DNA of 64,000 nucleotides from Eledone cirrhosa (taxonomy: Eukaryota), in the NCBI GenBank assembly GCA_964016885.1, contig OZ024741.1:231136001-231200000 (forward strand), given 5' to 3'. Every line of letters begins with the position of its first letter. Position 1 is the stretch's first letter. This document shows positions 10,483-59,899 of this stretch, one piece after another. Made by a program: the position numbers and the translations under genes. The notes beneath the pieces were generated by a model that was given only the letters and a program-made list of their open reading frames with translations, was not told the origin of the DNA and ran no database searches.

Positions 10483-13400
10483 CAATGATATTAAATAAAT
10501 GGAAACTATATTTATAAAACCATATTTATTCTATTATATATATTTCAGGGGTCTCAAAAAACTTTGGTAGGCTTTCATCAGATAAAATACGAAGAATGTT
10601 TTATACATTTTGACATAGCCAAGGAAATCATACCTTATCTGTTGAATTTTCTTGGGTAGTGAGATTAAAGGACGGATATTTCAAACTTATGGATGAATAT
10701 GTAAATAAGGTTGAGTTATGTGATTGAAAAACCGTTATTTAAAAAGCTATGGAAAGTTTAGATATATAATAATAAGAGAGAAAGAAAGAAGGAAGAAAAA
10801 GATAAAGGAAAAGGAAAAGGAAAACCACTTATAACGTTAAACTGGGGGAAATATATTCGAAAATGTATCTATATTATATATATATTTATATGGGGAATTA
10901 TGTTTGTAAATATTTATCTTATTATAATATTGTAGTGGGTATAAATATCTATATATATTTTAATAATAGCATATGTATTTTTATAAAAAAAATAATTTGT
11001 TTATAATATGAGTTACGGTGGAATTGATTTTGTGTTTTATGTAGATAAATAAATAAATAAATAAATAGGTAGTTAAAATTGTGAATGTTTTAAATTAAAT
11101 TAACGGAGTTAGGTATAATAAGTTTTATATGATTGAAAAGGAAAAGATAACTCCGATTTTTGTATTAATCATTAATGTGAGATTAATTAATTATTTAGTC
11201 TAAAGAAATATGAATGTTTAAACATCGTCTTTAATAGGATACATTTTGCTAAAATCAGTTAATGGTTATTAATCTACGTTTAAAAAAATAGCTTTAGAGG
11301 GTGTCATTGGAAAAATATAGAATTAAGAGATTTAAAAATTAAAAATTAAAACATTTACATTAAAATTAAATTCAAAATTAAAATTAGAATTATATAGATA
11401 TACATCAATATATATAAATATATATACATATATATGAAAATATATGTATAAATAAATATATACATACATATATATTATGATAATTTCTTTCTAAAAGTTG
11501 AACATACGAGAAATATTAGAGATATTATGATTTAGAGATATTAATATATTTAAAATATTAATTGTTAAAGCTGATAGGATATTATAAGTTACATATAGTT
11601 TTGAATGTAGAATTTTTGCGATGTCTACAAGAATTAAATACCTCTGTTCTGAGATTAATAGAGTTTTGACAGTTAATTATATAAAAAATTTCTTCAATAC
11701 ACAATTTACAGATTCTTGATAAAGCCGTGTTTCGGTACGCAGGTTCTTTTGAAATCGTTTTCCAACATATTGAATAGTCTATATTCTTGCTTTTTAAGTT
11801 CCATATAAGATGTGAGAGAGAAGTAGATTTTTTATCAGATATTTTGAAAGTGTGATTGTGGTTAAACCAGCGATCTTTAAATGCTGTAGATGTTTCACCG
11901 ACATAGTTAAATATGTTATCACTAGTTTTAACTGTGCATTTATAGACTACATTTTTATCTAAATATTTATTTTGTAAAGGACAGTTTGATTTGATTCAAC
12001 AGTTACATTTTATGGAGTTGTTATTGCGCGGAACAGTACTATTAGGTTGGATATTGCTAGAAATATTATTATTGCTATTATGGTTATTTTGGTTAGGGTT
12101 TAAATTTAAGTTTCTATTATTAATTCTATTTATATTTTGTAGTAGGATAGGATAGTCTTATATATGTCTGTTAAAGATTGAGGGGTATCTGTGGACTTTA
12201 GGAAAATATTTGTCTAGTGCTTTAAAGAATAGCTTTGCTAAAGGTGTTTTAACGCTTAATGAGAACGGGGGTGAGTACCAAATAATATGTCTAGTTCTAG
12301 TTCTTTTGTTTGTTTTAGAGTTTAAGTTAAATTGTTTATTATTATTATAATTAATAGGCGGGTGATTTGCCTTGTTATTGTTGTCAATGTATTTAGTTTT
12401 ATTCAAATATCCTGCTCTATTTAAAGCTTCATTATAATATTCAGCCTTATCATCAAACATATTTTTATTAGCAGAGATGCGTGAAATTCGTTGTTGGACA
12501 TTATTGACAATAGTGTTCTTAATAGATCTAGGATGATTAGAGTTAAAACTTACGTAATTTAGATTCTCATCAATTTTATGGAATGGATAGTAGAACACTG
12601 TCCTAAGGTTTAATGTTACGTCTAAAAAGTTAACGATTTTATAGTTATTCTCTATTTCTAACTTAAGGTTATAATTATTGAAGAATTGTATTATGGATTT
12701 TCTTTTCCTATTAATTTCACAATTACTATGGTGTTCAATTAAAAGCAACATATCATGACGATATAAACCACCGGTCATCTCTGGCATTTTTCTATGCAGT
12801 GTATTATTAATAAATAAGCCCACAAGATCCGTTACTTTACTTGCGCCGAGTCAGATGATCCCATAGTGATATCAAAATTATTTTTGATATCGGCTCTTGT
12901 CCAGAGATGATTGTTGAATTCAATTAAAGTTTTCCGTGCAATTAGAATTATATGCATTTCATCACTAGATAAGTCTGTATGTTTAGATGCATAGATAAGA
13001 GCCCTATTAAGTAAACTAGGAGTAATAGAGGAGTAGTAATTTGCAATATCCATTTGAATTAATATTTTGTTATGTTTAAATTTTGTTATTGAACCAATCT
13101 ATAACTTCATTAGTACCGTTCCATAGTTTCAGGTGTGATTTTTCTTTAAGTTGCGGTATGATTGTATCTAATATAAAAGTTTACTAATAAATGTTCGAAT
13201 ATATTTCCCCCAAATAAACGTTATAAGTGGTCTTCCTTTTCCTTTTCCTTCTTTTTATTTTCTTTTTCTTTATCTTTCTTCTTTCTTTCTCTCTTATTAT
13301 TATATATCTAAACTTTCTATGACGTTTAAAATAACGGTGTTTCAATCATTTAACTCAACCTTATTTACATATTCATTTGCATATTCATCCATAAGTTTGA

Positions 13401-17525: not shown

Positions 17526-17545
17526 TATATATATATTTATATATT

Positions 17546-17584
<39 letters not shown>

Positions 17585-17587
17585 ATT

Positions 17588-17618
<31 letters not shown>

Positions 17619-17717
17619 TTATATATATATTTATGTATTTATATATATATTTATATATTTATATATATATATATATATTTATATATTTATATATATATAT
17701 ATATATATTTATTTATA

Positions 17718-17760
<43 letters not shown>

Positions 17761-17825
17761 TTATATATATATTTATATATATATTTATATATATATTTAT
17801 ATATATATTTATATATATATATATT

Positions 17826-17934
<109 letters not shown>

Positions 17935-17940
17935 ACATAG

Positions 17941-17972
<32 letters not shown>

Positions 17973-18023
17973 ACATAGATATATATATATTTATATATAT
18001 ATATACATAGATATATATATATT

Positions 18024-18079
<56 letters not shown>

Positions 18080-18090
18080 TATATATATAT

Positions 18091-21000
18091 ATGAATATAG
18101 ACATAGAATATTCGAAAATATTCTGTATGTTTATAATAAACATTTTGAAGACCTAATCGCTATAGAATAGAATACGTCACGTATTACAATTAGATTCTCG
18201 ATAAAAGCAAGGGAAGTAATCTACGCGTTTCATTCTCGTTAGAAATCATCAGGACTACATATCCAGTGCTTTTATCGAGAATGACACAGCTAGAGACTTA
18301 TAGAATACTTAGCTGTGTACAGGAACTGGTTTGAAAGAGCGGTTGCCGGTCCGGCAGAAATTAGAAATTGGAATAAATGCTCTGAAATAGCGATATATAT
18401 GTGAATATAGACATAGAATATTCGAAAATATTCTGTATGTTTATAATAAACATTTTGAAGACCTAATCGCTATAGAATAGAATACGTCACGTATTACAAT
18501 TAGATTCTCGATAAAAGCAAGGGAAGTAATCTACGCGTTTCATTCTCGTTAGAAATCATCAGGACTACATATCCAGTGCTTTTATCGAGAATGACACAGC
18601 TAGAGACTTATAGAATACTTAGCTGTGTACAGGAACTGGTTTGAAAGAGCGGTTGCCGGTCCGGCAGAAATTAGAAATTGGAATAAATGCTCTGAAATAG
18701 CGATATATATGTGAATATAGACATAGAATATTCGAAAATATTCTGTATGTTTATAATAAACATTTTGAAGACCTAATCGCTATAGAATAGAATACGTCAC
18801 GTATTACAATTAGATTCTCGATAAAAGCAAGGGAAGTAATCTACGCGTTTCATTCTCGTTAGAAATCATCAGGACTACATATCCAGTGCTTTTATCGAGA
18901 ATGACACAGCTAGAGACTTATAGAATACTTAGCTGTGTACAGGAACTGGTTTGAAAGAGCGGTTGCCGGTCCGGCAGAAATTAGAAATTGGAATAAATGC
19001 TCTGAAATAGCGATATATATGTGAATATAGACATAGAATATTCGAAAATATTCTGTATGTTTATAATAAACATTTTGAAGACCTAATCGCTATAGAATAG
19101 AATACGTCACGTATTACAATTAGATTCTCGATAAAAGCAAGGGAAGTAATCTACGCGTTTCATTCTCGTTAGAAATCATCAGGACTACATATCCAGTGCT
19201 TTTATCGAGAATGACACAGCTAGAGACTTATAGAATACTTAGCTGTGTACAGGAACTGGTTTGAAAGAGCGGTTGCCGGTCCGGCAGAAATTAGAAATTG
19301 GAATAAATGCTCTGAAATAGCGATATATATGTGAATATAGACATAGAATATTCGAAAATATTCTGTATGTTTATAATAAACATTTTGAAGACCTAATCGC
19401 TATAGAATAGAATACGTCACGTATTACAATTAGATTCTCGATAAAAGCAAGGGAAGTAATCTACGCGTTTCATTCTCGTTAGAAATCATCAGGACTACAT
19501 ATCCAGTGCTTTTATCGAGAATGACACAGCTAGAGACTTATAGAATACTTAGCTGTGTACAGGAACTGGTTTGAAAGAGCGGTTGCCGGTCCGGCAGAAA
19601 TTAGAAATTGGAATAAATGCTCTGAAATAGCGATATATATGTGAATATAGACATAGAATATTCGAAAATATTCTGTATGTTTATAATAAACATTTTGAAG
19701 ACCTAATCGCTATAGAATAGAATACGTCACGTATTACAATTAGATTCTCGATAAAAGCAAGGGAAGTAATCTACGCGTTTCATTCTCGTTAGAAATCATC
19801 AGGACTACATATCCAGTGCTTTTATCGAGAATGACACAGCTAGAGACTTATAGAATACTTAGCTGTGTACAGGAACTGGTTTGAAAGAGCGGTTGCCGGT
19901 CCGGCAGAAATTAGAAATTGGAATAAATGCTCTGAAATAGCGATATATATGTGAATATAGACATAGAATATTCGAAAATATTCTGTATGTTTATAATAAA
20001 CATTTTGAAGACCTAATCGCTATAGAATAGAATACGTCACGTATTACAATTAGATTCTCGATAAAAGCAAGGGAAGTAATCTACGCGTTTCATTCTCGTT
20101 AGAAATCATCAGGACTACATATCCAGTGCTTTTATCGAGAATGACACAGCTAGAGACTTATAGAATACTTAGCTGTGTACAGGAACTGGTTTGAAAGAGC
20201 GGTTGCCGGTCCGGCAGAAATTAGAAATTGGAATAAATGCTCTGAAATAGCGATATATATGTGAATATAGACATAGAATATTCGAAAATATTCTGTATGT
20301 TTATAATAAACATTTTGAAGACCTAATCGCTATAGAATAGAATACGTCACGTATTACAATTAGATTCTCGATAAAAGCAAGGGAAGTAATCTACGCGTTT
20401 CATTCTCGTTAGAAATCATCAGGACTACATATCCAGTGCTTTTATCGAGAATGACACAGCTAGAGACTTATAGAATACTTAGCTGTGTACAGGAACTGGT
20501 TTGAAAGAGCGGTTGCCGGTCCGGCAGAAATTAGAAATTGGAATAAATGCTCTGAAATAGCGATATATATGTGAATATAGACATAGAATATTCGAAAATA
20601 TTCTGTATGTTTATAATAAACATTTTGAAGACCTAATCGCTATAGAATAGAATACGTCACGTATTACAATTAGATTCTCGATAAAAGCAAGGGAAGTAAT
20701 CTACGCGTTTCATTCTCGTTAGAAATCATCAGGACTACATATCCAGTGCTTTTATCGAGAATGACACAGCTAGAGACTTATAGAATACTTAGCTGTGTAC
20801 AGGAACTGGTTTGAAAGAGCGGTTGCCGGTCCGGCAGAAATTAGAAATTGGAATAAATGCTCTGAAATAGCGATATATATGTGAATATAGACATAGAATA
20901 TTCGAAAATATTCTGTATGTTTATAATAAACATTTTGAAGACCTAATCGCTATAGAATAGAATACGTCACGTATTACAATTAGATTCTCGATAAAAGCAA

Positions 21001-22720
21001 GGGAAGTAATCTACGCGTTTCATTCTCGTTAGAAATCATCAGGACTACATATCCAGTGCTTTTATCGAGAATGACACAGCTAGAGACTTATAGAATACTT
21101 AGCTGTGTACAGGAACTGGTTTGAAAGAGCGGTTGCCGGTCCGGCAGAAATTAGAAATTGGAATAAATGCTCTGAAATAGCGATATATATGTGAATATAG
21201 ACATAGAATATTCGAAAATATTCTGTATGTTTATAATAAACATTTTGAAGACCTAATCGCTATAGAATAGAATACGTCACGTATTACAATTAGATTCTCG
21301 ATAAAAGCAAGGGAAGTAATCTACGCGTTTCATTCTCGTTAGAAATCATCAGGACTACATATCCAGTGCTTTTATCGAGAATGACACAGCTAGAGACTTA
21401 TAGAATACTTAGCTGTGTACAGGAACTGGTTTGAAAGAGCGGTTGCCGGTCCGGCAGAAATTAGAAATTGGAATAAATGCTCTGAAATAGCGATATATAT
21501 GTGAATATAGACATAGAATATTCGAAAATATTCTGTATGTTTATAATAAACATTTTGAAGACCTAATCGCTATAGAATAGAATACGTCACGTATTACAAT
21601 TAGATTCTCGATAAAAGCAAGGGAAGTAATCTACGCGTTTCATTCTCGTTAGAAATCATCAGGACTACATATCCAGTGCTTTTATCGAGAATGACACAGC
21701 TAGAGACTTATAGAATACTTAGCTGTGTACAGGAACTGGTTTGAAAGAGCGGTTGCCGGTCCGGCAGAAATTAGAAATTGGAATAAATGCTCTGAAATAG
21801 CGATATATATGTGAATATAGACATAGAATATTCGAAAATATTCTGTATGTTTATAATAAACATTTTGAAGACCTAATCGCTATAGAATAGAATACGTCAC
21901 GTATTACAATTAGATTCTCGATAAAAGCAAGGGAAGTAATCTACGCGTTTCATTCTCGTTAGAAATCATCAGGACTACATATCCAGTGCTTTTATCGAGA
22001 ATGACACAGCTAGAGACTTATAGAATACTTAGCTGTGTACAGGAACTGGTTTGAAAGAGCGGTTGCCGGTCCGGCAGAAATTAGAAATTGGAATAAATGC
22101 TCTGAAATAGCGATATATATGTGAATATAGACATAGAATATTCGAAAATATTCTGTATGTTTATAATAAACATTTTGAAGACCTAATCGCTATAGAATAG
22201 AATACGTCACGTATTACAATTAGATTCTCGATAAAAGCAAGGGAAGTAATCTACGCGTTTCATTCTCGTTAGAAATCATCAGGACTACATATCCAGTGCT
22301 TTTATCGAGAATGACACAGCTAGAGACTTATAGAATACTTAGCTGTGTACAGGAACTGGTTTGAAAGAGCGGTTGCCGGTCCGGCAGAAATTAGAAATTG
22401 GAATAAATGCTCTGAAATAGCGATATATATGTGAATATAGACATAGAATATTCGAAAATATTCTGTATGTTTATAATAAACATTTTGAAGACCTAATCGC
22501 TATAGAATAGAATACGTCACGTATTACAATTAGATTCTCGATAAAAGCAAGGGAAGTAATCTACGCGTTTCATTCTCGTTAGAAATCATCAGGACTACAT
22601 ATCCAGTGCTTTTATCGAGAGTGACACAGCTAGAGACTTATAGAATACTTAGCTGTGTACAGGAACTGGTTTGAAAGAGCGGTTGCCGGTCCGGCAGAAA
22701 TTAGAAATTGGAATAAATGC
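18091..22720 (-). mobile_element. Tandem array of 15 x 310-bp HHR-containing units (candidate non-LTR retrozyme)
   Basis: Unit starts every 310 bp from 18091 to 22431; last unit is 290 bp. One internal substitution noticed (22621). No ORF. Flanked by (TA)n. Confidence 0.92.
18216..18258 (-). ncRNA. Type I hammerhead ribozyme, first of 15 (repeats every 310 bp)
   Basis: gtagtc CTGATGA t ttct aacg agaa t GAA ACGCGT A gattac: 6-bp stem I, palindromic stem III, GUA site. Enclosed by a perfect 16-bp helix, 18194-18209 with 18267-18282. Confidence 0.88.
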
Positions 22721-22752
22721 ATATATATATATATATAAATTGGAATAAATGC

Positions 22753-22844
<92 letters not shown>

Positions 22845-22846
<2 letters not shown>

Positions 22847-23382
22847 CATAAAACATATCTATAGAATCACCAGATAAATATATATACCATTTGCTCTCCT
22901 AATTAGCATAATTAACCATATAAAAAATCGAATAGACCAGGCTATAAGAATAAGGCTTCTATGAAGAAATATCCAACAAATAACCGAAACTAGCCGTTCG
23001 CGTCGGCTGCGACGGAATGTTTATCGAATATTTCGACAGCTTAATCGCCCAGATATACAGAATTAGGTGTAAAATAAACTAGGAGAAAAGGGAATACATT
23101 TATTTACCTCGACCATGGTTTCGACCGCATTTTGAGATTTCCAATAACTTCGGAAACTGGAGCACCGGACTCTTTAAGTGTTTGCTCAAATCTAGACAAT
23201 AGATTTTCCAAAATGATCGCGCCAAGAATGCATTAAAAAATGTCTAAGAATCGTGACGTAGCAGCGGTCAGGTTGGAAGGAGTGTGGTCAGTTGCTTACA
23301 GCTGGTGGCTTTTTGCTAGAAAGCACAGCACAATACAGCCAAATTTTTATTTCAACCTTACAGGAGAATATTACATATAAAG

Positions 23383-23481
<99 letters not shown>

Positions 23482-24092
23482 CATATACGTGTTTTGCAAC
23501 GGGTCACTTTGTGGCTCAATGAAAAGTTAATAAATTAAATAATCAGAGCTATATATCCTAAAACATGTCTATAGAATAACCAGATAAAATATATACTATT
23601 TCCTCTCCCAATTAGCATAATTAACCATATAAAATATCGAATTGACCAGGCTATAAGAATAAGGCTTCTTCCAACAAATAACCGAAACTAGCCCTTCGCG
23701 TCGGCTGCGACGGAATGTTTATCGAATATTTCGACAGCATAATCGTCCAGATATACAGTCAATTAAACAGAATTAGGTGTAAAATAAACTAGGAGAAAAG
23801 ATAATACATTTATTTACCTCGACCACGGTTTCGTTCGCATTTTCAGATTTCCAATAACTTGGGAAACTCGAGTACCGGACTCTTCAGGAGTTTGCTCAAA
23901 TCTAGACAATAAATTTTCCAAAGTGATCGCGCCAAGAATACATTAAAAAATGGCTAAGAATCGTGACGTAGCAGGGGTCAGGTTGGAAGGAGTGTGGTCA
24001 GTTGCTTACGGCTGGTGGCTTTTTGCTAGAAAACACAGCACAATACAGCTAAATTTGTATCTCAACCTTATGGGAGATTATTACATATAAAG

Positions 24093-24140
<48 letters not shown>

Positions 24141-26005: not shown

Positions 26006-27180
26006 CATATATATATATATATACACATATACATGAATACACATACATTTAATTATACACATCAAATATATATATGTATATATATCTCACCCACTTATTT
26101 ACTTATTTATATACATTTTCACCTATATACATACATAAGGTCGCTTTTAGACACATTCATTATAGCATATTCGCACCTATTCTCGCCAGCATATTTATCC
26201 ATTATTAGTGTGATAATTTAAGGTTATTAATAGTACATATATATGTTGAGAAGTGATTGTTTTTATATTTTTCTAACTAGATTGAGGATTTGTATAGTTG
26301 GGAGGATGTCCCTCGTTTATGTAATATTCAGCTTGTAGTGGGAAAAAGGGTTTTGGTTCGGTGACGGCAGAATACTGTTCGTTCGATTTTGTTATTAAGC
26401 AGTTTCTTCTTGTGTGTGATTATGTAATAAATCTCAAGATTACATAGTTTGCAGAAATTTTGGCTCCTGGAAAAGCTTTGGGTTTTAGCTAATTTCTCCC
26501 ATTTTAGGGTAAACTTTTGATCGCTATCCCTGAGTGTCCAAGCTTTTTCTGCTAAAGTTGCTACATTTCTTTGGCTCTGGTGTTTTATTGAGTAAGAATG
26601 CCTATATAATCGAGATTTAAACGATGTTGCCGTTGATCCCACGTAATACCACGCGTTGCCTCCGGATTCAATGGTACACTTATAGATGATATTTTTTTCA
26701 AGGCAGTTATTGCCGAGGGGGCAATTGTCAGGATAGGTACAGTTACAGTTGTGTACGTTGGTTTTGTAGTTAGGTTTACTCTGGTGTAGTATTGCGGACG
26801 AACTTAGGTGTGGTTTATTTATGTTCTGTAGTGTATTGTCTACTGTTTTTTTGTGCTCTTTGTACTTAAGTTTTTAGTGTTTTCGTTTAACCTTCTAGTA
26901 TTGATCTTTTTTATGTGTTGTTCAAGGTTTAACGCTGTAGAGTATGACAGTCTTATAGTGGTAGGGTTTAGGATTTTGTGGTATTTGTGTGATGTAGGGA
27001 AATGTTTCCTAACTATTTAAAAGAAGAGGACCGGTAAATTTGTACTAATGGAACTATTGTATTCAGGGTTATACAATAAGTACTCTTTGCATCGCTTTCT
27101 ATTAGATTTGTTTGTTGGTTTACTGGTGTGTACACTATGGTAGTAAATGTGGTTTGGTGTTGTGTTATTATTTCGACCTA
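25237..27180 (-). mobile_element. PLE 3' fragment (linker, GIY-YIG, 3' UTR with HHR); internally deleted copy at 37990-38845
   Basis: Reads CNCTYPDNCPLGNNCLEKNIIYKCTI..YYVGSTATSFKSRLYRH..CKLCNLE..CRHR (26328-26760). HHR core is intact in copy 2 (38027-38147): ttatt CTGATGA ... GAA ACACGTGT C aataa. Confidence 0.88.
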
Positions 27181-29577: not shown

Positions 29578-30462
29578 AAATATAAATATATATATATATA
29601 TTTATATATATATATATAAATATAAATATATATATATATATTTATATATATAAATATAAAAATATATATATATATTTATATATCTATATAAATATAAATA
29701 TATATAGATATATTTAAATATATATATATGGCTTGGCAAGTTATTTAGAACGCTGGTTTGAGACGTTTGTTTCCCCCTAAAGAAGAGATATTATCTCGAA
29801 TATTAAGGATATTTAAATAGATCTAAGGTAAAAGACGAATTGTCAACAATATCTTTTGCAATTGCATTCTTTTTTCTATGCCCATACCTGCATTGTTTTG
29901 GCTTTATTATACATATTCAAACGTTTATATATATATATATATTTATATATATACATATATATATAAATATTTATAAATATATATATATATTTATATATAT
30001 ACATATATATATAAATATATATAAATATATATATATATTTATATATATTTATATATATAGGTATATATATAAATATATATAAATAAATATATATATATAA
30101 ATATATATATATATTTATATATATACATATATATGAATAAATATATATATATAAATATATATAAATATATATAAATATATATAAATATATATAAATATAT
30201 ATATATTTATATTGTTATACTTTGGGAGGGTCATGTTGCCAATAAGAAACACACACACCACATGCTTTCACTTCAATTTATTATATATTTATAAACTTAG
30301 AAATTTATAAATTTATAAATTTCTGGTTGGTTGGTTGGTTCCACAACCAGATAGTTGTTTATATATAGTCATAGTTCCTTTGTCACACACTCTGTGACCT
30401 TTTCACTGACTGGGGATTCCTTTCTTTGTTTCTGTGCCTCTCCTTTGTTCTGTCCTACGCCA

Positions 30463-31984
30463 TATAGTAATAGTTACCTAGACACTAATGACCTTAGCAA
30501 CCTGTGTCCTACAAGACCAGCAAGAGGCAGACCACCTACCATTACCTTAATGGCCAAGAAAACCTACACAGATAGATGGAAGGGGTGGACCAGAGCAATG
30601 CGGACACCCGAAAACCACGATGAACTGAAGAAAATGATTGCACATGCGGTAGGGGCCAGCATAAAACTAACCCTTCAGGAATATATGTTCAAATTTAATG
30701 GAAAAACATATGCCCAAGAGGAAGGAGCAGCCATTGGTGTTAGCATTGCAGGCGACATAGCTAACTTATTCATAGTATGGTGGGACAGTAGACTTAAACT
30801 TAAACTTAAAGAACAATTAAAAGTCCCCTTAACCCTGATAATGTACTCCCGCTACGTAGATGATATAAACATCGTAGTTAAGACACCCCCACTAGAGAAC
30901 AGTCAGGAACTAGAGAAAAACACAATGGAAAGCATCCAGCAAATAGCAAACACCATCCACCAGAGCATTAGAGTTACTATAGACTACCCAAGTAAACACC
31001 CCAACCATCGATTACCTGTACTAGACACAGAGCTCTGGTTAGATACCATTAACAACAAAAAAACAAATCCTCCATTCCCATTATGCCAAACCCATGACTT
31101 CCAAACATCTGTTCCACCGAAACTCGGCCATTTCTGACCATACCAAAATCAACATACTGATTGCGGATTTCGTACGCGTGATGAGAAATGTGTCCCGCAT
31201 GTGCAACCCCGAAGAACTAGAAAGACACATACAACACTTCATCCACCGTATGCAGTTCTCTGGCTACAATCAGAGAGATAAAATCAGAGTGTATAGAGGA
31301 GCCAGAACCAAATGGGAAAAAATGGTAAATAATGACATAAATGGGACCTGCCCCTTGTATAGGAGCAAGTTTTGGAATAGAATAGAAAGAACTAGGAACA
31401 AGGCTAATAGAAGAAACTCATGGTATGATAGCAATAAATACCAGAGTGTAATGTTCATCGATACCACCCCTAGAGATGAACTAGCTTACAAATTTAGAAG
31501 GGCCCTAAATAAACATAAACTCAATATTAAGATAGTAGAAAGACCAGGTACCTCTGTAAAAACACTTATTAGCAAGACATACCCTTTTCAAAGACCCTCA
31601 TGTATAGATAAGAAATGTGTAACCTGTAAAATAAGCCCCCATATTAACTGTAAAACTAGAAATGTAGTGTATAGCATAGGATGTACTGAAGGACAATGTA
31701 GAGACAACAATATAGTGTACATAGGTGAGACAGCTCGTAGTGTAGGGGAACGGATAAATGAACACTGGCGAGACCTTCAAGATAATGAAGAATCATCTGT
31801 ACTCTACCAACATTCTAAGATAGAACACAAGGGTAAATTAGAGAACATAGAAATAAAAATAGAATCTACACACAGAAAAGACGCAATGTTTAGACAAATT
31901 ACAGAGGCAATAAACATAAAAGAATTACAACCAAAATTAAATAGAAAATATGAGTGGAACAGCAACATCACAACTTACAATTAA
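30463..31984 (+). pseudogene. PLE reverse transcriptase plus GIY-YIG endonuclease, 5'-truncated, one frameshift
   Basis: RT motifs GAAIGVSIAGDIANL, SRYVDDI, LPVLD. Frameshift at the A-run near 31060. Endonuclease reads C..CVTC..C..NVVYSIGC..VYIGETARSVGERINEH..R..EA. Confidence 0.9.
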
Positions 31985-32178
31985 GGACAAAATGAAAACA
32001 CACACACACATAGAACAAACAACCAACCATGTAAATAAACAATTAGATAAATGAACATAAACACACACAGACACCCGGATGTGGCGCATGCGCAGACTGA
32101 GCACACAACACACACACAGAACCAAAATGGCATAGGACAGAACAAAGGAGAGTCAGAGAAACAAAGAAAGGAATCCCC

Positions 32179-32223
32179 AGTCACTGAAGAGGTCACAGAG
32201 TGTGTGACGAAAGAACTATGACT
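32179..32223 (+). ncRNA. Type I hammerhead in PLE 3' pseudo-LTR
   Basis: agtca CTGAAGA g gtcaca gagtg tgtgac GAA AGAACT A tgact. Intact core also at ~35562-35606 (-); inactivated copy at 30367-30411 (-). Confidence 0.85.
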
Positions 32224-32741
32224 ATATATAAACAACTATCTGGTTGTGGAACCAACCAACCAACCAGAAATTTATAAATTTATAAATTTGTACATTTATA
32301 AATATATAATAAATTGAAGTGAAAGCAACTGGTGCGTGTGTTTCTTATTGGCAACATGACCCCCCCAAAGTATAACAATATCGGTTTCAACACACGATTT
32401 CAGATAAAGAATGTTGCTAAACAAATTCAGAAACGAAATATGTATTTATATATATACATATATATATATAAATATATATATATATTTATATATATACATA
32501 TATATATATTTATATATATACATATATATATATAAATATATATATATATATTTATATATATACATATATACATATATAAATACATATATGAATATATATA
32601 AGAATTGAAATATTAGAGTGTGTTGGAGTTAAACACCCTCTTCGTATTATAGAAATGACAGTAAAGGTATAGATCAATTTAATTAAACAGAGCCGAAGAA
32701 TTATGAAAATAAACCAAAGAAGCTTTCAATACATCAAAAGT

Positions 32742-32795: not shown

Positions 32796-33371
32796 CTATA
32801 AGAAGCACTATCAGCCAATACAAGCCGATAACTCAGAAGAAAATGGAGTGTACATAGATTAAATCATAAGAAAATAATCGGGTAAAAATTATCAAGTAAA
32901 AAATTATCAAGTAAAACATTATCAAGTGAAAATTGCTAAGGAAGTAAGTAACATTTTGAACCATATTACAAATATAGTCCAATGCAAAAACTAGAGCTAA
33001 GACAGGGGTGGTGATATAGAGCGGGAATTATTGTACTATATATAATATAATATAATATAATTAATAATGATAATAATAATAATGTTAATAGGCCCAATAT
33101 ACATATATATATATATACATATGTACACATATATACATATATATCAATACACATTTCCATCAATAGAAGCACAAACTAACCCTTATTAAGAGTTTAAATA
33201 TAAATAAGAATAATAATAATAAAAATAAAAATAAAAATAAAAATACAAATTAAAATAAAATTAAAATATAATACATATAAAATTTACAGTATATATTTAT
33301 GTATTTATATATATATTTATATATTTATATATATATATATATATTTATTTATATATTTATATATATATATA

Positions 33372-35357
33372 AAAACAAATGACGAAACGAAATTAAATTT
33401 CGTTTCGTTTGTAACTCACTTTTGTATGACTGACGCTTAAACAATTAAGTTAAAAAAATTACATCTACATATGCATACTGAAATACTAGTGTGTATATGA
33501 ATACACACACGTATACATATGTATATGTAACAAGTCTTTCACTGGTTGCTTTACTGTGAGCACCCAGCTATTCTGTATGTAAACACACAGACAAACCGGT
33601 TTTTAGAGTCATACTGGTTTTTGAGGGAACACCTTCCCTCTATTCCCTAGAAAGCCAGACAAGGAATATTGAACTAGTTTCGTTGTTGTTACAACTCATC
33701 AGCAATATTTACCTATCTACCGGCCTTTCTGGAGAATTGTAAAAGCACATATCGTTATATGCTTTTTCTATGAAAATTAGTAGTGGGCAGACTAATTTGC
33801 ATAGAGTGTGAGTACGCACCGGTTCAGCGGAGACGATAAAAACAAATGACGAAACGAAATTAAATTTCGTTTCGTTTGTAACTCACTTTTGTATGACTGA
33901 CGCTTAAACAATTAAGTTAAAAAAATTACATCTACATATGCATACTGAAATACTAGTGTGTATATGAATACACACACGTATACATATGTATATGTAACAA
34001 GTCTTTCACTGGTTGCTTTACTGTGAGCACCCAGCTATTCTGTATGTAAACACACAGACAAAACGGTTTTTAGAGTCATACTGGTTTTTGAGGGAACACC
34101 TTCCCTCTATTCTCCAGAAAGCCAGACAAGGAATATTGAACTAGTTTCGTTGTTGTTACAACTCATCAGCAATATTTACCTATCTACCGGCCTTTCTGGA
34201 GAATTGTAAAAGCACATATCGTTATATGCTTTTTCTATGAAAATTAGTAGTGGGCAGACTAATTTGCATAGAGTGTGAGTACGCACCGGTTCAGCGGAGA
34301 CGATAAAAACAAATGACGAAACGAAATTAAATTTCGTTTCGTTTGTAACTCACTTTTGTATGACTGACGCTTAAACAATTAAGTTAAAAAAATTACATCT
34401 ACATATGCATACTGAAATACTAGTGTGTATATGAATACACACACGTATACATATGTATATGTAACAAGTCTTTCACTGGTTGCTTTACTGTGAACACCCA
34501 GCTATTTTGTATGTAAACACACAGACAAACCGGTTTTTAGAGTCATACTGGTTTTTGAGGGAACACCTTCCCTCTATTCCCCAGAAAGCCAGACAAGGAA
34601 TATTGAACTAGTTTCGTTGTTGTTACAACTCATCAGCAATATTTACCTATCTACCGGCCTTTCTGGAGAATTGTAAAAGCACATATCGTTATATGCTTTT
34701 TCTATGAAAATTAGTAGTGGGCAGACTAATTTTCATAGAGTGTTTACATACAGAGTAGCTGGGTGCTCACAGTAAAGCAACCAGTGAAAGACTTGTTACA
34801 TATACATATATATATACGTGTGTGTATTCATATACACACTAGTATTTCAGTATGCACATGTAGATGTAATTTTTTTAACTTAATTGTTTAAGCGTCAGTC
34901 ATACAAAAGTGAGTTACAAACGAAACGAAATTTAATTTCGTTTCGTCATTTGTTTTAATCGTCTCCGCTGAACCGGTGCGTACTCACACTCTATGCAAAT
35001 TAGTCTGCCCACTACTAATTTTCATAGAAAAAGCATATAACGATATGTGCTTTTACAATTCTCCAGAAAGGCCGGTAGATAGGTAAATATTGCTGATGAG
35101 TTGTAACAACAACAAAACTAGTTCAATATTCCTTGTCTGGCTTTCTGGAGAATAGAGGGAAGGTGTTCCCTCAAAAACCAGTATGACTCTAAAAACCGGT
35201 TTGTCTGTGTGTTTACATACAGAATAGCTGGGTGCTCACAGTAAAGCAACCAGTGAAAGACTTGTTACATATACATATGTATACGTGTGTGTATTCATAT
35301 ACACACTAGTATTTCAGTATGCATATGTAGATGTACTTTTTTTTTAACTTAATTGTT
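33372..35357 (-). mobile_element. 467-bp HHR tandem array (~3 direct plus ~1.3 inverted units), candidate retrozyme
   Basis: Units start at 33372, 33839 and 34306; inversion near 34741. HHR aatattg CTGATGA gttg taacaa caac GAA ACTAGT T caatatt at 33665-33709, 34132-34176 and 34599-34643. The + copy at 35086-35130 has G12 to A. Confidence 0.9.
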
Positions 35358-35379
35358 TATATATATATATTTATATATA

Positions 35380-35928: not shown

Positions 35929-37528
35929 ACACACACACATATATATATATAAGTATATTTATATCATAAAACATATCTATAGAGTCACAAGATAAATATA
36001 TATACCATTTCCTCTCCCAATTAGAATAATTAACCATATAAAAAATCGAATAGACCAGGCTATAAGAATAAGGCTTCTATGAAGAAATCTCCAACAGATA
36101 ACCGAAACTAGACCTTAGCGTCGGCTGCGACGGAATATTTATCGAATATTTCGACAGCGTAATCGCCCAGATATACAGAATTAGGTGTAAAATAAACAAG
36201 GAGAAAAGGGACTACATTTATTTACATCGACCATGGTTTGGTCCGCATTTTGAGATTTCCAATAACTTCGGAAACTGGAGCACCGGACTCTTTAAGTCTT
36301 TGCTCAAATCTAGACAATACATTTTCCGAAGTGATCGCGCCAAGATTACATTAAAAAATGTCTAAGGATCGTGACGTAGCAGCGGTCAGGTTGGAAGGAG
36401 TGTGGTCAGTTGCTTACAGCTGGTGGCTTTTTGCTAGAAAGCACAGCACAATACAGCCAAATTTGTATTTCAACCTTACAGGAGAATATTACATATGAAG
36501 GATTACATATAAATATATATATATATATACATACATATACGTGTTTTGCAACGGGTCACTTTGTGGCTCAATGAAAAGTTAATAAATTAAATAATCAGAG
36601 CTATATATCCTAAAACATGTCTATAGAATATCCAGATAAAATATATACCATTTCCTCTCCCAATTAGCATAATTAACCATATAAAATATCGAATCGACCA
36701 GGCTATAAGAATAAGGCTTCTATGAAGAAATCTCCAACAAATAACCGAAACTAGCCCTTCGCGTCGGCTGCGACGGAATGTTTATCGAATATTTCAACAG
36801 CGTAATCGCCCAGATATACAGTCAATTAAACAGAATTAGGTGTAAAATAAACTAGGAGAAAAGATAATACATTTATTTACCTCGACCACGGTTTCGTCCG
36901 CATTTTAAGATTTCCAATAACTTGGGAAACTCGAGCACCGGACTCTTCAGGAGTTTGCTCAAATCTAGACAATAAATTTTCCAAAGTGATCGCGCCAAGA
37001 ATACATTAAAAAATGGCTAAGAATCGTGACGTAGCAGCGGTCAGGTTGGAAGGAGTGTGGTCAGTTGCTTACGGCTGGTGGCTTTTTGCTAGAAAACACA
37101 GCACAATACAGCCAAATTTGTATCTCAACCTTACAGGAGATTATTACATATAAAGGTTTACATATATATATATATACATACATACATATACGTGTTTTGC
37201 AACGGGTCACTTTTTGGCTCAATGAAAAGTTAATAAATTAAATAATCAGAGCTATATATCATATATATCTAATTGGGAGAGGAAATGGTATATATTTTAT
37301 CTGGTGATTCTATAGACATGTTTTATGATATATAGCTCTGATTATTTAATTTATTAACTTTTCATTGAGCCACAAAGTGACCCGTTGCAAAACACGTATA
37401 TTTATGTATGTATATATATATATATATATATATGTAAACCTTTATATATATATATATTTATATATATATATTTATATATATTTTAATATATATATTTATA
37501 TATATTTTAATATATATATTTATATATA

Positions 37529-42756: not shown

Positions 42757-45700
42757 AAGAATTGAAATATTAGAGTGTGTTGGAGTTAAACACCCTCTTC
42801 GTATTATAGAAATGACAGTAAAGGTATAGCTCAATGTAATTAATCAGAGCCGAAGAATTATGAAAATAAACCAAAGAAGCTTTCAATACATCAAAAGTCT
42901 TTATTAGCCAACAATGTTTCGTCCTATTAAGGACTCATCAGGGCAATTAAAGCTATAAGAAGCACTATCATCCAATACAAGCCGAAAACTCAGAAGAATA
43001 TGGAGTGTACATAGATTAAATCATAAGAAAATAATTGGGTAAAAATTATCAAGTAAAAAATGATCAAGTAAAAAATTGCTAAGGAAGTAAGTAACACTTT
43101 GAACCATATTACAAATATAGTCCAATGCAAAAACTAGAGCTAAAACAGAGGTGGTGATATAGAGCGGGAATTATTGTACTATATATAATATAATATAACA
43201 TAATATAATTAATAATGATAATAATAATAATGTTAATAGGCCCAACATACATATATATATATATACATATGTACACATATATACATATATATCAATACAC
43301 ATTTCCATCAATAGAAGCACAAACTAACCCTTATTAAGAGTTTAAATATAAATAATAATAATAATAATAAAATAAAAATAAAAATAAAATACAAATTAAA
43401 ATAAAATAAAAATATAATACATATAAAATTTACAGTATAAAATTAAGAATAAATGATTATAATTAAGCATAACATATATAATAAACTATATAATTATATA
43501 ATAGATAATCACCGGTTAATTTGCACAAACAATATAAATGTTACAATAACAGTAAAATCACAATATTATAATATAATGGCATATAACTTAACAAATCATA
43601 TAGAGTTACAGACAGGGTGAGAGAAAAAATATTGTACAGAACTAAATAATATTGGAAAAATTATGTTGGAAAATATCAAAACCATTGCAAGAAAATAGAT
43701 CAAATTTCTATACAGTTGGTGTAAATAAATATTATCCGAACATTACAATAATTATAAAAATATAAACATATTACAGGATTTACAGAATTTAACATAACAT
43801 AATGGTACATTTAATAATAGGTAAATAATTGTTTCTACTTTAGGCACAAGGCCAGCAATTACCCAGTGTATTACTGGTACTTTATTTTATCGACCCCGTA
43901 AGGATGAAAGGCAAAGTCAACCTCGGCGGGATTTGAGGTTGACAAATAATAATGATCAGTAGTATGTTTACAAAGAGTGGAATGATATAAAATTTCAATA
44001 TAAAATATTGAACATAGTATAATATACATAATTACATGGTTGGTGGAGAGACATTTGTGAATAAGTGAATGAGAGGCAGACAGACAGACTACGCACGGTA
44101 GTATATATAAATAAATACAATCAACCGGAAATTGAAAAACAAAAACAAAAGTATTTACTTAGGTGTCGCATGCAGTTAAGTAAAAATTTTAGGAAACAAA
44201 CCCGGATAAATGACTAGAAAACCCTATTAAAATAATTAATATTGAAAGTACTTAAAATACATAATAAGTCCATACAAAATTAGCTATGGTTTAAGTAATC
44301 AAAATCCCCGAATTTAAAGAAATCACTATAAAAATATATCTGGAAAAAATGAAATATTCAACTATCAGTTGCATAACGTTATCTAATAAACAGGCTTTAA
44401 ATAGAGTTATGGTAAGCCAATGGGGACAGAAAAAAGAAATGTATGGAGGATATGAAAGAGCATAAAATCATAATCCACATACTGTATTATACAATATAAA
44501 GGAGCGTAAAAGGGAATTGGATATATTTATAGTATATTTGAAGGGGCGAGTGACAAGTATGTATGTGTGTGTGGGGGGGGGGGGGGTAGTTATCCAAAGA
44601 AGAATCCAAATAAAATAGAATATAAAATAAAATAAGATATATAATCAGATATAAACTCATAAGGTGTTAATAGTGAAAATATATTTAAGAAGATAGAAAT
44701 GGTAAGGTAGCCAAAAGATTATGAAAGCTATAATGAAAAGCTGTCAAAAGCCAATGATAAAAATGATGATAATGATGGTGGTAAACATAATAAACCTTAA
44801 CTAAAAAGATAAGGGAATGTAGCAGCTAATGGATACAATTTACACTACTAGAACCTTTAGGTTTATAATAAAAGTAAGAATTTGAAATGGCGTGGGGGCA
44901 AGAAGAGAATATCTCAGACTTTCTATTAAGTAAGGTTTCCCTTGAGAAAATTATAGAGTGGGTCTCAAGGATACAGAGATTGAAAAATTTAGTATGTGTT
45001 GAAAGGTTATTAGAGCGTGCTACTATACGCCAACTAAGGTTATATGGTATATTAAAGAAGTAGAATTCTTAAACTTAACATGTTTAAAATTAGAGATATG
45101 AGAATTAAACCTAGTCTTAAAAGTGTTAGATGTAGAGCCTATATACGTGCTATTAAGATAATTAGTTTTAACAACACAAGCATAAACGATGTTCTTAGAG
45201 AGGCAGTTACCGTTTAAAGGGCAGTTAGCACCCACTCTACAGTTACACTTCCGGGTGTTATTGATCGGCTGAAGTAGTGATACATCGCACGTAGGATTAC
45301 TATGAGATAAAGTCTGCTCTGGTGGTAAGGCATTTACGGATCTATTCTGACTAATAGTACGTAGAGAGGAGTATCCATCTCTAATTTTCCCATTGTTAGT
45401 GCTAGCTAAATGAGAACTAATATTAGGGGTGGTAGAGAATTAAGGTTTAATTACATTTTTTATTAAAAATACTATGGTATTTATTAGTAGGAGGGAAGTT
45501 TTTCTCTAAGATAGAAAAGAAAGACCTTGGGATGTTAGTTAATACTTCCTGATTATATGGCGGGTTAAAATAAGTATTTAGTTTCCTTCTATGTTTATCC
45601 TTACCAACTCTACCGTTATCTAATGTCCCATTATTAAGATTTGGGTTACAACAAGGATTAGTTAAAACCACATTACTAGAATCAGCCGAAACTCGATTAA

Positions 45701-47895: not shown

Positions 47896-48531
47896 TCAGT
47901 CGGGGGGCCGGGTGGGTCTGTAGTTTTTGTAATTTGCATAGTTCTTGTGCATGCAATTAGGGGAGTGTTCCGAGATCTTGTTTTGGAGAGGGCCTTTGGC
48001 GAATAGAATCTCATAGCTCTCGAAGATACAGAGGTCACAGCAATTATGGCCTCCCGTGTAGGATCGCGCTCTCTGGAGTAGTCTCCATTGGGTCTTGAAG
48101 GGGATGGAGTTCCTTTTAAGGTGCCAGATGTGGGCGGCGAGTGTAGTTTGATTAGATTTTTCTGGGCACCGGAACGAATGTGTGTGGGCGTACCAGCGAG
48201 TCTTAAAACTATTCGAAGTCCTCCCGATGTACGAGTTTCTTTTTTCATCGGGGCCTGAGAGTACATCGCATATATAGACGAGATCTTTTTTTAGACAGTT
48301 GTTGTTGAGAGGGCAGGTCGTCTTATCAGGGCAATTGCAGTTTCTATCGGTTGCTGGATGGGCTTCGGAAAAAGTAGACTTATTTAGCTTCTTGATGTTA
48401 TTGTTGGCTAAGTTCCTAGCTAGATTAGGTGGGGTAGAGTAATAGAGTCTAATGGTATTCTTATTAAGGATAGTATAGTACCTATGTTGGGTGGGGAAGT
48501 GTTTTGGGAAGAGAGTGAAGAAAATTTTAGC
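47896..48531 (-). CDS. PLE linker plus GIY-YIG endonuclease, uninterrupted 211-codon frame without a start codon (not in the ORF track)
   Basis: Manual translation: AKIFFTLFPKHFPTQHRYYTILNKNTIRL...CNCPDKTTCPLNNNCLKKDLVYICDV..SYIGRTSNSFKTRWYAH..CDLCIFE..CMHK..PPD*. Confidence 0.85.
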   Translation of the reverse strand, partial: AKIFFTLFPKHFPTQHRYYTILNKNTIRLYYSTPPNLARNLANNNIKKLNKSTFSEAHPATDRNCNCPDKTTCPLNNNCLKKDLVYICDVLSGPDEKRNSYIGRTSNSFKTRWYAHTHSFRCPEKSNQTTLAAHIWHLKRNSIPFKTQWRLLQRARSYTGGHNCCDLCIFESYEILFAKGPLQNKISEHSPNCMHKNYANYKNYRPTRPPD

Positions 48532-48579
48532 TGGGTCTGTTCATCCTCCACAGGTTGAAGATCCTCTTCACATGCCTCT

Positions 48580-49100
48580 CCGGTGGTCTCTACCGAGATG
48601 ACGGCCTCTTTGCCCTCCACAAAAGCAACCCCAGGACCACAGATGGGTTCAGGAAAAACCTTTACACCTTCTTTAAAAACTTAGGCCTTAGGATTACCTT
48701 AGATTCGAACTTAACTAAAGCTAACTTCCTAGACGTTACCCTCGACTTAGAAACTTCCCTTTACTACCCGTACCACAAACCTAAAGAATCGCTTAGATAT
48801 ATAGACGTTAATTCTAACCACCCCAAAAATATATTAGACAACCTAGTAAAAAGTGTCTCCATTAGGATATCTAGCCTCGCCGCCAATGAAGACATCTTTA
48901 GAGCAGCAGCCCCCTATTACAACGAGGCCCTGGCCCGCAGCGGCTTTAGAGATAAGATCACCTACCTTAATATAGCCCAACGCCCACCCAGGGAGAATAG
49001 GCGAAGGCACATTACCTGGTACAAACCCGCCTTCAACCGCGAAGTTTCAACACCTGTAGCTAAAATTTTCTTCACTCTCTTACAAAAACACTTCCCCACC
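48580..49100 (+). pseudogene. PLE RT C-terminal half and thumb
   Basis: GGLYRDDGL..NFLDVTLDL..YPYHKP..SNHP..ITWYKPAFN..KHFPT, then jumps into 3' UTR sequence. Confidence 0.9.
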
Positions 49101-49392
49101 CCCGTCCCCCATCCCAATTCCGTCCCTCCATCTCTCATTATTACCCTCTTTCCTCCCCTCTATCTCTCATTATTACCTTCTTTCCTCCCCTCCAGGTCTT
49201 ATATATTGTGTTGTATGCCTCTGAGTAAAGTTCCGTGGCCGCACACACAAATTCACGTATATACCTGCTCATGTTTGCATACGCGGAGTTATGAACTGCT
49301 GCGCGCACACGTTCGTGATTTATTTATCTATTTATTTATTTATTTATTTATTTATTTAGTTACTTTATTTACTTATTTATTTATTTATCTAC

Positions 49393-49427
<35 letters not shown>

Positions 49428-49883
49428 CTTATTTACTGGTTTATTTGTTTATCTGTTTGTTTGTTTGTTAGTTAACTAATTCATTTATTTATTAATTTAT
49501 GAGTGAATGATTAGGTAATGAATAGATAAAAGATAAAAGATAGGTAACGAATAGTGAATGGTAAACAGTAAATAATAAATAGTAATTAATTACTTGATGA
49601 TAATATTAATAACTTAGTAGTGATATTAATTATTTTAATCCTCTATCAGGTCCAGTTTAAAATTTAAAGTTTGAAATTTGAAATTAAAAATTTAAAATTT
49701 GAAGTTTGGAATTTGAATTTTAAAATTTAAAATTTGTCCCACTACCATTATATTATAGACACATGTATGAGTGTGAACGAGTGCGTGTTTGTGCATATGC
49801 GTTTATGTGTACTTATCTGTATGTATGTATGTGTATCTATGCGTGTGTGCTTGTATATGTGTATGTGTGTGTATGTATATATG

Positions 49884-51921: not shown

Positions 51922-51957
<36 letters not shown>

Positions 51958-52383
51958 CAGGTACACATACATATATGTACGTATAAGTTTAGCGGACGCT
52001 TATTATAACGCCCGCTTTGTTCGTTTATAAACAAACTGAACAGCCTGAATTTATGCCGTACGGTGTTAAGGCAACCACGTCACCTTTTTGTTCAACACTG
52101 ACACAGGAACGATGTACTAGTTTCAAGGTTGTTAGCTATCATCAGCACCGTATACCCATCTGCCAGATGGTTGAACGTTCGAAAGTATATACTTTCCTTA
52201 TGAAAATTAACGGCTGAGCAGCCTAATTTGCATATCGAGTGAGTTCGGCCAGGCGTACCGAGAACGATAAGTTGTATTAAAATGAAAACGAAATTTCATT
52301 TCCCACTCTTAGTACGGCACTTACTTAAATGTAAGTATACGTACATACATATATGTATACAGACGTACAGTAGCATGCAATGC

Positions 52384-52457
<74 letters not shown>

Positions 52458-52870
52458 GTATATATATATATACATACAGGTACACATACATATATGTACG
52501 TATCAGTTTAGCGGACGCTTATTATAACGCCCGCTTTGTTCGTTTGTAAACAAACTGAACAGCCTGAATTTATGCCGTACGGTGTTAAGGCAACCACGTC
52601 ACCTTTTTGTTCAACACTGACACAGGAACGATGTACTAGTTTCAAGCTTGTTAGCTATCATCAGCACCGTATACCCTTCTGCCAGATGGTTGAACGTTCG
52701 AAAGTATATACTTTCCTTATGAAAATTAACGGCTGAGCAGCCTAATTTGCATATCGAGTGAGTTCGGCCAGGCGTACCGAGAACGATAAGTTCTAATAAA
52801 ATGAAAACGAAATTTCATTTCTCACTCTTAGTACGGCACTTACTTAAATGTAAGTATGTATGTATACGTA
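51805..52870 (-). mobile_element. ~519-bp HHR tandem repeat (~2.2 units); inverted diverged copy at ~59535-59900
   Basis: acggtg CTGATGA t agct aaca agct t GAA ACTAGT A catcgt at 52628-52670; copy at 52109-52151 has one stem II mismatch. + copy at 59609-59651. Confidence 0.87.
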
Positions 52871-59533: not shown

Positions 59534-59899
59534 ATGGGCTACTCAGCCGTTAATATGCATAAGGAAAGTATATACTTTCGGACGTTCAACTATCTGGCAG
59601 GAAGGTATACGTTGCTGACGATAGCTAACAAGCTTGAAACTAGTACAGCGTTCCTTTGTCAGTGTTGAACAAACGAGCAAAGGTGGTTGCTACACACCGA
59701 GCATTATAATAAATGTTTGGTGAATCCATACGTACAAATATATATATGTACATGTATGTATATATATATTCATACTACTGTACGTCTGTATACATATATG
59801 TAAGTACGTATACATACTTACATATATATATATATATATATATATATGCATACTACTATACGTCTGTATACATATATGTATGTACGTATACATACTTAC

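Follow-up and report, generated by a model that had tools for sequence, protein, structure and literature searches.

A young family of 310-bp hammerhead retrozymes in Eledone cirrhosa, inserted as head-to-head arrays and likely to parasitise Penelope-like elements

We analyzed a 64,000-nucleotide stretch of the Eledone cirrhosa genome (assembly GCA_964016885.1, contig OZ024741.1, positions 231,136,001 to 231,200,000 of the forward strand; hereafter the window), in which a non-coding tandem array of a 310-bp hammerhead ribozyme unit lies between (TA)n and (AT)n tracts. The element is a new family of non-LTR retrozymes (LTR, long terminal repeat). We consider it likely that the family is non-autonomous, parasitises a Penelope-like element (PLE) and is copied repeatedly, as a circle, from both ends of a DNA cut. 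The array matches a period of 310 bp exactly and contains 14.93 units rather than the 15 of a preliminary description, which was right that the units are essentially identical: the 14 full units do not differ from each other, and the last partial one carries a single substitution (22621 A>G). The unit has a GC content of 0.35, and the longest stop-free frame in a unit trimer is 59 codons, so it has no coding capacity, as had been described. The array also begins where it was said to begin, that is, not at the ribozyme cut site but at the (AT)4 tract of the unit, fused to (TA)n. Positions within the unit are given below in nucleotides after the cut, numbered from the first base 3' of the predicted hammerhead cut, and coordinates are collected in Table 1. 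The window copy is a single arm with one end at priming site 1 and its 5' end at position 152, which is atypical of the family. It has no array end at priming site 2, a site used once per inverted insertion.

A minimal type I hammerhead with the palindrome ACGCGU had been proposed for the minus strand of each unit, and the motif is indeed present in 15 of 15 units, one per unit. In the first of them, stem I has 6 bp (GUAGUC/GAUUAC, 18258-18253 paired with 18221-18216), and the core CUGAUGA is followed by a U.U pair, a 4-bp stem II with an AACG loop, and GAAA. Stem III is one C-G pair inside the palindrome, and the predicted cut falls after UA, between 18222 and 18221, as described before. An Rfam search gave no hammerhead match at E<=1 and returned (AT)n noise only, so the assignment rests on direct inspection, folding and covariation.

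Folded as a circle, which the preliminary description had suggested doing, the monomer has a minimum free energy (MFE) of -67.8 kcal/mol, against -48.0 +/- 4.1 for shuffled sequences, none of 100 being as low; it is thus predicted to form a stable self-paired circle. Of the pairings reported earlier, the predicted fold contains the UUCG hairpin, acacagcta and tgccgg, and also the 16-bp helix, which continues stem I so that the hammerhead is enclosed. The aatacgt/acgtatt pairing is present too, with 6 bp predicted, and so is the atagcgat pair, which lies within the monomer when this is numbered from the cut and does not span the unit junction as had been stated. The UUCG hairpin, directly 5' of priming site 1, is a candidate part of the structure bound by the reverse transcriptase (RT). 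In the monomer the core is predicted to be mispaired; for two 50-nt motifs together, the predicted lowest-energy state is a symmetric double hammerhead.

Older relatives of the family were also found in the genome (4,369 copies of a 22-nt motif, 66-85% identity), and they keep the fold of the unit. In an alignment of nine of the ten rows (L096 was left out; here and below, L with a number designates a locus), 89.8% of the cells are paired and 22 of 41 pairs are altered on both sides, which is reached in none of 500 shuffles, with slid controls at 37-48%; these controls are lenient, because the structure tested was that of the unit and the aligned sequences are relatives of one another. The core pair 3-8 is C-G in four and U-A in five of the nine sequences in this alignment. 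The relatives have a longer stem III, and five of the eight aligned have a U3-A8 core.

A 33-mer across the hammerhead occurs exactly 4,219 times in the 3.0-Gb genome, and a 32-mer common to most haplotypes occurs 16,032 times, the reversed controls giving 0 in both cases, so at least 16,032 units are present. Patterns that fuse the unit to (TA)n gave 579 reverse-strand ends at site 1 and 738 at site 2. Forward-strand counts of these junctions overlap. Doubling the junction counts gives an estimate of about 1,300-1,500 insertions, which agrees with about 11 units in each. The same kind of pattern found no (TA)n-fused end at the ribozyme cut site anywhere in the genome. Dispersed arrays with fixed start phases were therefore found at more than 1,000 sites and with two end sites. 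Unit-private variation is only 0.41 variants per kb, so the burst must be very recent. Satellite DNA grown in place was rejected as an explanation in view of the dispersed sites, the fixed ends and this low private variation.

We mapped 62 insertions, namely the window copy and 61 others on contig C1 (positions 1-101 Mb); L041 was left out, as it holds no element. Fifty of them are head-to-head pairs, in which an antisense arm is followed by a sense arm and the RNA 3' sides point outward, and the remaining 12 have a single arm (among these, L050 enters a gap and L052 has a second arm of 7 nt). When loci were picked by an internal pattern alone, nine of the first ten were inverted. All 50 pairs have exactly one outer end of each of two types. 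The first type lies at 128-147 (mostly 130 or 139, in the (AT)4 tract), the second at 160-172 (most often 165). Outer ends are nearly always joined to (TA)n, and the second priming site lies about 30 nt beyond the first. Inner ends are scattered round the unit (chi-square p=0.13), with 2 of 109 within 5 nt of the cut where 3.5 are expected. The arms average 4.2 and 6.6 units, and 90% of 96 arms are longer than one unit. Their lengths fit an exponential distribution (Kolmogorov-Smirnov p=0.17) and are uncorrelated between the two arms (rho 0.21, p=0.14); the site-2 arm is the longer one in 26 of 48 pairs, and neither arm type is regularly shorter.

The centre joint could be measured in 37 pairs, 12 of 49 being left out of the test. 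Sixteen joints have microhomology of at least 2 nt, four have one nucleotide, five are blunt and 12 contain extra letters. Microhomology of at least 2 nt thus occurs in 16 of 25 insert-free joints, against 18% expected, and near mirror-symmetric joints number 5 of 49 against 3.3 expected. A target duplication can be seen at L182 and L032, where it measures about 14 nt; at the other insertions (about 60) it is masked by (TA)n. In the mapped insertions there is no terminal repeat apart from the 310-bp units, and no arm continues into an open reading frame (ORF), the inner ends being joined to the other arm or to flank DNA. An autonomous PLE or PLE pseudo-LTR (pLTR) was rejected as the identity of the element, since no ORF with RT and GIY-YIG domains is attached to any arm. 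The extra letters at the 12 joints are often derived from the element, and at L054 (2299-2570) an unrelated GC-rich sequence of 272 bp is trapped between the arms. At the right end of the window array, a 32-bp piece is present in two copies (22705-22736 and 22737-22768). Its 16 nt of element begin exactly at position 167, one of the preferred starts of site 2, but are oriented like the array; the duplication may be due to slippage or may be what is left of the second priming event.

PLEs are described as leaving inverted 5'-truncated copies with a tail of 30-40 bp at one end and (TA)n targets (PMC8557442), and self-priming has been proposed for the inversion (PMC3846280). According to the account in PMC11167929, the purified anole PLE protein, a predicted dimer, cuts both strands of AT-rich DNA and extends each of them; on the RNA, priming takes place at two internal sites that lie 3' of the hammerhead cut and bound the tail. 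The 310-bp family carries the same marks, with an inverted truncated copy, two internal start sites about 30-40 nt apart and (TA)n targets. Two fixed internal ends together with tail and inversion point to priming of the PLE type, and the head-to-head second site is the strongest evidence for it. The action of a PLE on the 310-bp retrozyme, taken by itself, is very probable.

A PLE of the host itself, used as a control, shows the same end rule. One short and one long end were found in 18 of 20 inverted pairs, comprising 11 of 13 fetched pairs and seven of seven seen within other loci; a fourteenth fetched pair was left out because its end lies outside the stretch. Of the two remaining pairs, one is long/long; the other is short/short and has identical flanks. 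As the host PLE obeys the end rule and a second, 467-bp hammerhead family also forms double arrays, the rule may be general. An abundant PLE of the host was noticed both in the window and at L179, where its frame is intact (1167 aa) and carries an N-terminal stretch rich in Asn. Pfam matches to RT were no more than weak for the window fragments, and the intact frame had no Pfam match, so the label PLE depends on GIY-YIG-like and YVDD motifs, recognised by eye, and on the ends.

The arms of one insertion agree with each other in their variants. In 32 of the 34 pairs with at least two units in both arms, the two arms carry an identical fixed haplotype, whereas permutation gave a mean of 6.7 and a maximum of 16. 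There are 14 haplotypes in all among these 34 insertions, which differ from one another while each is nearly uniform. Moreover, there are rare variants fixed in all units of both arms (e.g. L057, L078 and L053), which requires a bottleneck of one unit. Of unit-private variants in spans covered by both arms, only 1 in 32 is common to both at the same turn (L080). Fixed substitutions at paired sites kept the pair in seven cases and broke it in four, with none in the core, compared with 6 kept, 30 broken and 2 core for unit-private ones (Fisher p=0.004). The fixed changes in the hammerhead affect position 7 and loop 2; stem I has pair-keeping ones and a one-base insertion, and in stem II the basal U.U has become A-U through a fixed change of U to A. 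The haplotype shared within an insertion and the fixed variants, which tend to keep pairs and spare the core, point to a monomer as template, probably in circular form. The lack of any fixed variant in the catalytic core and the covariation of pair 3-8 point to selection for cleavage.

The mechanism that we propose runs as follows. Arrays would be transcribed, and their hammerheads, of which the motif and its conservation are seen, would fold as dimers and excise 310-nt monomers; these would be circularised, as in known retrozymes. A PLE protein with RT and GIY-YIG domains, probably a dimer, would bind the conserved structure of the circle and make a staggered double-strand cut in (TA)n, with the duplication of about 14 nt that is seen in two loci. 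The two DNA 3' ends would prime one each at 130-139 and 163-172, in line with the observed end pattern. Each cDNA would then circle the same template several times and stop at random, as the observed arm lengths, phases and haplotypes suggest, and the two cDNAs would be joined by microhomology into the head-to-head double array observed. A single array such as that of the window may be due to one arm that was lost or never made. Long arrays may later lengthen by DNA-level duplication, as seen in at least four loci. Within this scheme the circular template is less certain than the action of a PLE. The preliminary description had read the array as a retrozyme that was inserted recently by PLE machinery, with priming at (TA)n and not at the cut site and with a probably circular template, and this is supported by the dispersed arrays, the fixed start phases, the single haplotype per insertion, the structure-keeping variants and the dimer fold as lowest-energy state. 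In L1 twin priming, two target ends likewise prime one RNA, and the result is a head-to-head inversion joined by microhomology; there, the template is a linear RNA, each arm is copied from a different part of it, and the position of the second site varies. Unlike this, both arms of the 310-bp element are repeated copies of one and the same unit, and the two sites at which they start are fixed.

Several observations weigh against the proposed mechanism. In vitro, PLE insertion is reported to proceed without need for hammerhead cleavage, unprocessed RNA being the main substrate (PMC11167929), and in one study only one of nine Xenopus retrozyme dimers cleaved (10.64898/2026.07.22.740005). The active fold of the monomer has -61.1 kcal/mol, which is 6.7 above the circular MFE, and stem II, with U.U at its base, has a predicted pairing probability of about 0.15. 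No partner PLE came to light when flanks and the window, 276 kb in all, were scanned by BLAST and for motifs, no PLE-like frame was seen upstream of 30 older-relative loci, and no PLE is joined to an arm in the mapped insertions. The host PLE family examined has a tail of 60 nt and no clear sequence likeness to the 310-bp unit, features that do not mark it as the partner. Selection through an end pattern, used for most of the mapped loci, decided one end of each such locus in advance. As to the template, the variant of L080 occurs only in the second turn of both arms, and L066 and L070 each have a mixed arm, all of which fits a multimer. Repeated variant patterns in L088 (45 units), L051, L053 and L054 indicate growth at the DNA level.

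Part of this evidence would suit a PLE that primes at two sites on a linear multimeric transcript of a parent array that stays uncleaved, with the hammerhead as a passenger and circles not being intermediates. The insertion without cleavage in vitro and the variants of L080, L066 and L070 fit such a course, and parent arrays are so young and uniform that their daughters would be uniform too. We nevertheless regard it as unlikely, since rare variants fixed in every unit of both arms need a one-unit bottleneck, shared unit-private variants are as scarce as given above, and the hammerhead core appears to be under selection for cleavage. The higher-order patterns of the four loci (in L088, a variant pair in 9 of 46 units) recall another course, proposed for vertebrate retrozymes (10.64898/2026.07.22.740005), by which a PLE would insert slightly more than one unit per arm and slippage or unequal crossing over would do the rest. 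Most arms are free of such a pattern, private divergence is very low, arm lengths are exponential and the inner phase is random; besides, a template of more than one unit, copied across the cut site without a scar, would still be needed. Local amplification as the general source of the arrays is accordingly quite improbable.

The inverted arm might also come from a single priming event followed by fold-back or self-priming, as modelled for PLEs (PMC3846280). The head-to-head structure is PLE-like and five of the 49 joints are near mirror-symmetric, but this number is close to the chance expectation, neither arm type is regularly shorter and, in both arms, the outer end is a fixed site that adjoins target DNA directly. 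A fold-back origin is largely ruled out by the joint phases, and we give it very little credence. The 14 haplotypes in 34 insertions with their structure-keeping changes, and the compact self-paired circle, would be expected if the RNA replicated from RNA in the manner of a viroid and the arrays were PLE-made snapshots of a quasispecies. However, the hammerhead motif is on one strand only, and a DNA-RNA-DNA cycle accounts for the haplotype diversity, only 62 of about 1,400 insertions having been sampled, so that a viroid-like cycle is highly improbable. Still more remote is an artefact of assembly or library, such as fold-back chimeras or mis-sized repeats. Array copy numbers are assembly values, and L050 enters a gap; on the other hand, flanks differ from side to side, joints are unmirrored, haplotypes and periods are specific to the insertion, and the unit is found in independent sequencing runs with haplotypes of this genome. 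After weighing these alternatives we hold, with slightly more confidence than doubt, that the insertions are a genomic record of rolling-circle reverse transcription by a dimeric PLE, both target ends priming one circle at one site each.

The independent runs just mentioned are 20 in number, under 18 organism labels and from 17 studies. No RNA run was among those listed as carrying the unit. Four of 24 listed runs were examined closely, three of the 20 unit-bearing ones as contigs and one as raw reads. In the three contig runs the unit has a depth of only 3-7, the flank repeat of the host next to it reaches depths of up to about 70, and the haplotype is that of the reference unit in one run and a two-change haplotype occurring in this genome in the other two. 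For the raw reads, of the same study and label as the best holder, 0 of 12.8 million were placed, which counts as no test. Given the low depth, the adjoining host repeat and the host haplotypes, the matches look like traces of DNA of this host or a close relative, and horizontal transfer was set aside on the same grounds.

The family resembles the metazoan non-LTR retrozymes of coral, mussel and axolotl (PMC7229834), which have tandem units of 150-450 bp with a type I hammerhead in each, no ORF, low GC (<50%), a self-paired monomer and PLEs in the same genome. Because every defining feature that can be tested conclusively was found, we place it among them as a new member. In the same account, two axolotl hammerheads cleave better as dimers: HHR_Amex1, the stem III of which is palindromic and has a single pair, and HHR_Amex2, in which U.U forms the base of stem II. 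The 310-bp hammerhead combines these two weak features. For those retrozymes circular RNA and cleavage were shown, and RT and priming were hypothesised (PMC7229834, the main text of which carries no mention of inverted copies, a tail or a microsatellite), whereas here it is the insertion anatomy that is described, read from the genome alone. Vertebrate non-LTR retrozymes likewise form dispersed tandem hammerhead arrays linked to PLEs, the link being co-occurrence and pLTR homology (bioRxiv 10.64898/2026.07.22.740005; its available text makes no mention of tail, priming or inverted retrozyme copies). Unlike them, the 310-bp unit showed no pLTR homology to a PLE in the flanks, the window, the 30 relative loci and one PLE family, and bears a PLE-type integration signature instead.

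Compared with endonuclease-containing (EN+) PLEs (Poseidon PAc, PMC11167929; Naiad and others, PMC8557442; Adineta Penelope, PMC3846280), the inverted 5'-truncated copy, the 30-40-nt tail, the AT-rich or (TA)n target and internal priming 3' of the hammerhead cut are alike, and the lack of an ORF in the 310-bp element and the multi-turn arms on both sides are different. Rotifer copies among these PLEs have target duplications of 8-10 bp. Priming occurs here at 130-139 and 163-172 nt past the cut, versus about 85-92 for the site given in PAc (PMC11167929), and the tail is obligatory at exactly one end, whereas in PLEs it is optional on one inverted pLTR (PMC3846280). The double-array anatomy, the rule of one end of each type and the single haplotype per insertion were not found in the literature searched, subscription papers and supplements lying outside the search.

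Other repeats of the window and flanks are also listed in Table 1. The 467-bp family has 5,197 exact hammerhead copies genome-wide, many in head-to-head arrays. Its period is 465-468, mostly constant within an insertion, and in the hammerhead region it shows 67% likeness to the 310-bp unit across 97 nt.

Table 1. Features of the retrozyme array and of other repeats (positions in the window unless a locus is named; the strand is that of the window)
Feature	Position	Strand	Remarks
Tandem array, 14.93 x 310-bp units	18092..22720	- (RNA sense = minus strand)	single-arm insertion, RNA 3' side at left
(TA)n target tract, left	17526..18091		primer end of cDNA
Priming site 1, 130-139 nt past cut	18083..18092	-	(AT)4 tract of the unit, overlaps target
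Priming site 2, 163-172 nt past cut (tail end)	18360..18369	-	coordinates of the first unit containing site 2
5'-truncation point, 152 nt past cut, with 32-bp tandem duplication	22705..22768		16 nt of element + (AT)8
(AT)n target tract, right	22721..22846
First type I hammerhead	18216..18258	-	repeats each 310 bp to ~22598; palindromic stem III for dimer folding
16-bp helix extending stem I, enclosing hammerhead	18194..18282 (18282-18267 with 18209-18194)	-	covaries in older relatives
UUCG hairpin	18105..18126	-	stem 100% paired, compensatory changes in relatives
Older relatives	L091-L120; L033 4354-4732; L046 4-278		mostly short or inverted, ends at same tail site
Abundant PLE	30209-32437; L179 1188-4691		C-terminal GIY-YIG-like domain, inverted 3' ends, 60-nt tail, (TA)n targets
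Other PLE-like frame fragments	11582-12850, 26328-26873, 45023-45439, 47896-49475, 63194-63580		some adjoin hammerhead motifs; presumably Hydra-like, going by motifs
Second hammerhead family	33369-35359		467-bp unit x2.9 and inverted arm between (TA)n tracts
Third hammerhead non-coding repeat	51925-52853, 59537-59699; L037 600-1630		U.U at stem II base, palindromic ACUAGU; tandem and inverted copies at (AT)n
Repeat with ~550-650-bp unit x4	22840-24095, 35958-37158		degenerate hammerhead-like motif, (AT)n between
Young family, 97-99% identical	L031 7064-7489; L043; L054; L083; L085; L086		inverted arms at (AT)n, two ends ~80 nt apart
High-copy flank repeat	L039 1300-1770		taken by us, from its look, to be a cephalopod SINE (short interspersed element)
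LINE-type (long interspersed element) RT fragment	54423-55457		Pfam RVT_1, E 3e-18

How animal retrozymes re-enter the genome, and how the tail and inversion of PLEs are formed, are called open in PMC7229834, PMC8557442 and PMC11167929. The present family is young, large and polymorphic, so that the mechanism can be read from the genome through the end rule, the haplotype of each insertion and the selection on the fold. It also provides an in vitro PLE assay with a short substrate and precisely located priming sites, so that the model of a circular template can be tested directly. If the proposed mechanism is true, retrozyme circles would be genuine transposition intermediates, the tail and inversion of PLEs in general would result from twin priming and not from self-priming, and a non-coding cis-element of 310 nt would suffice for PLE-driven double-ended integration.

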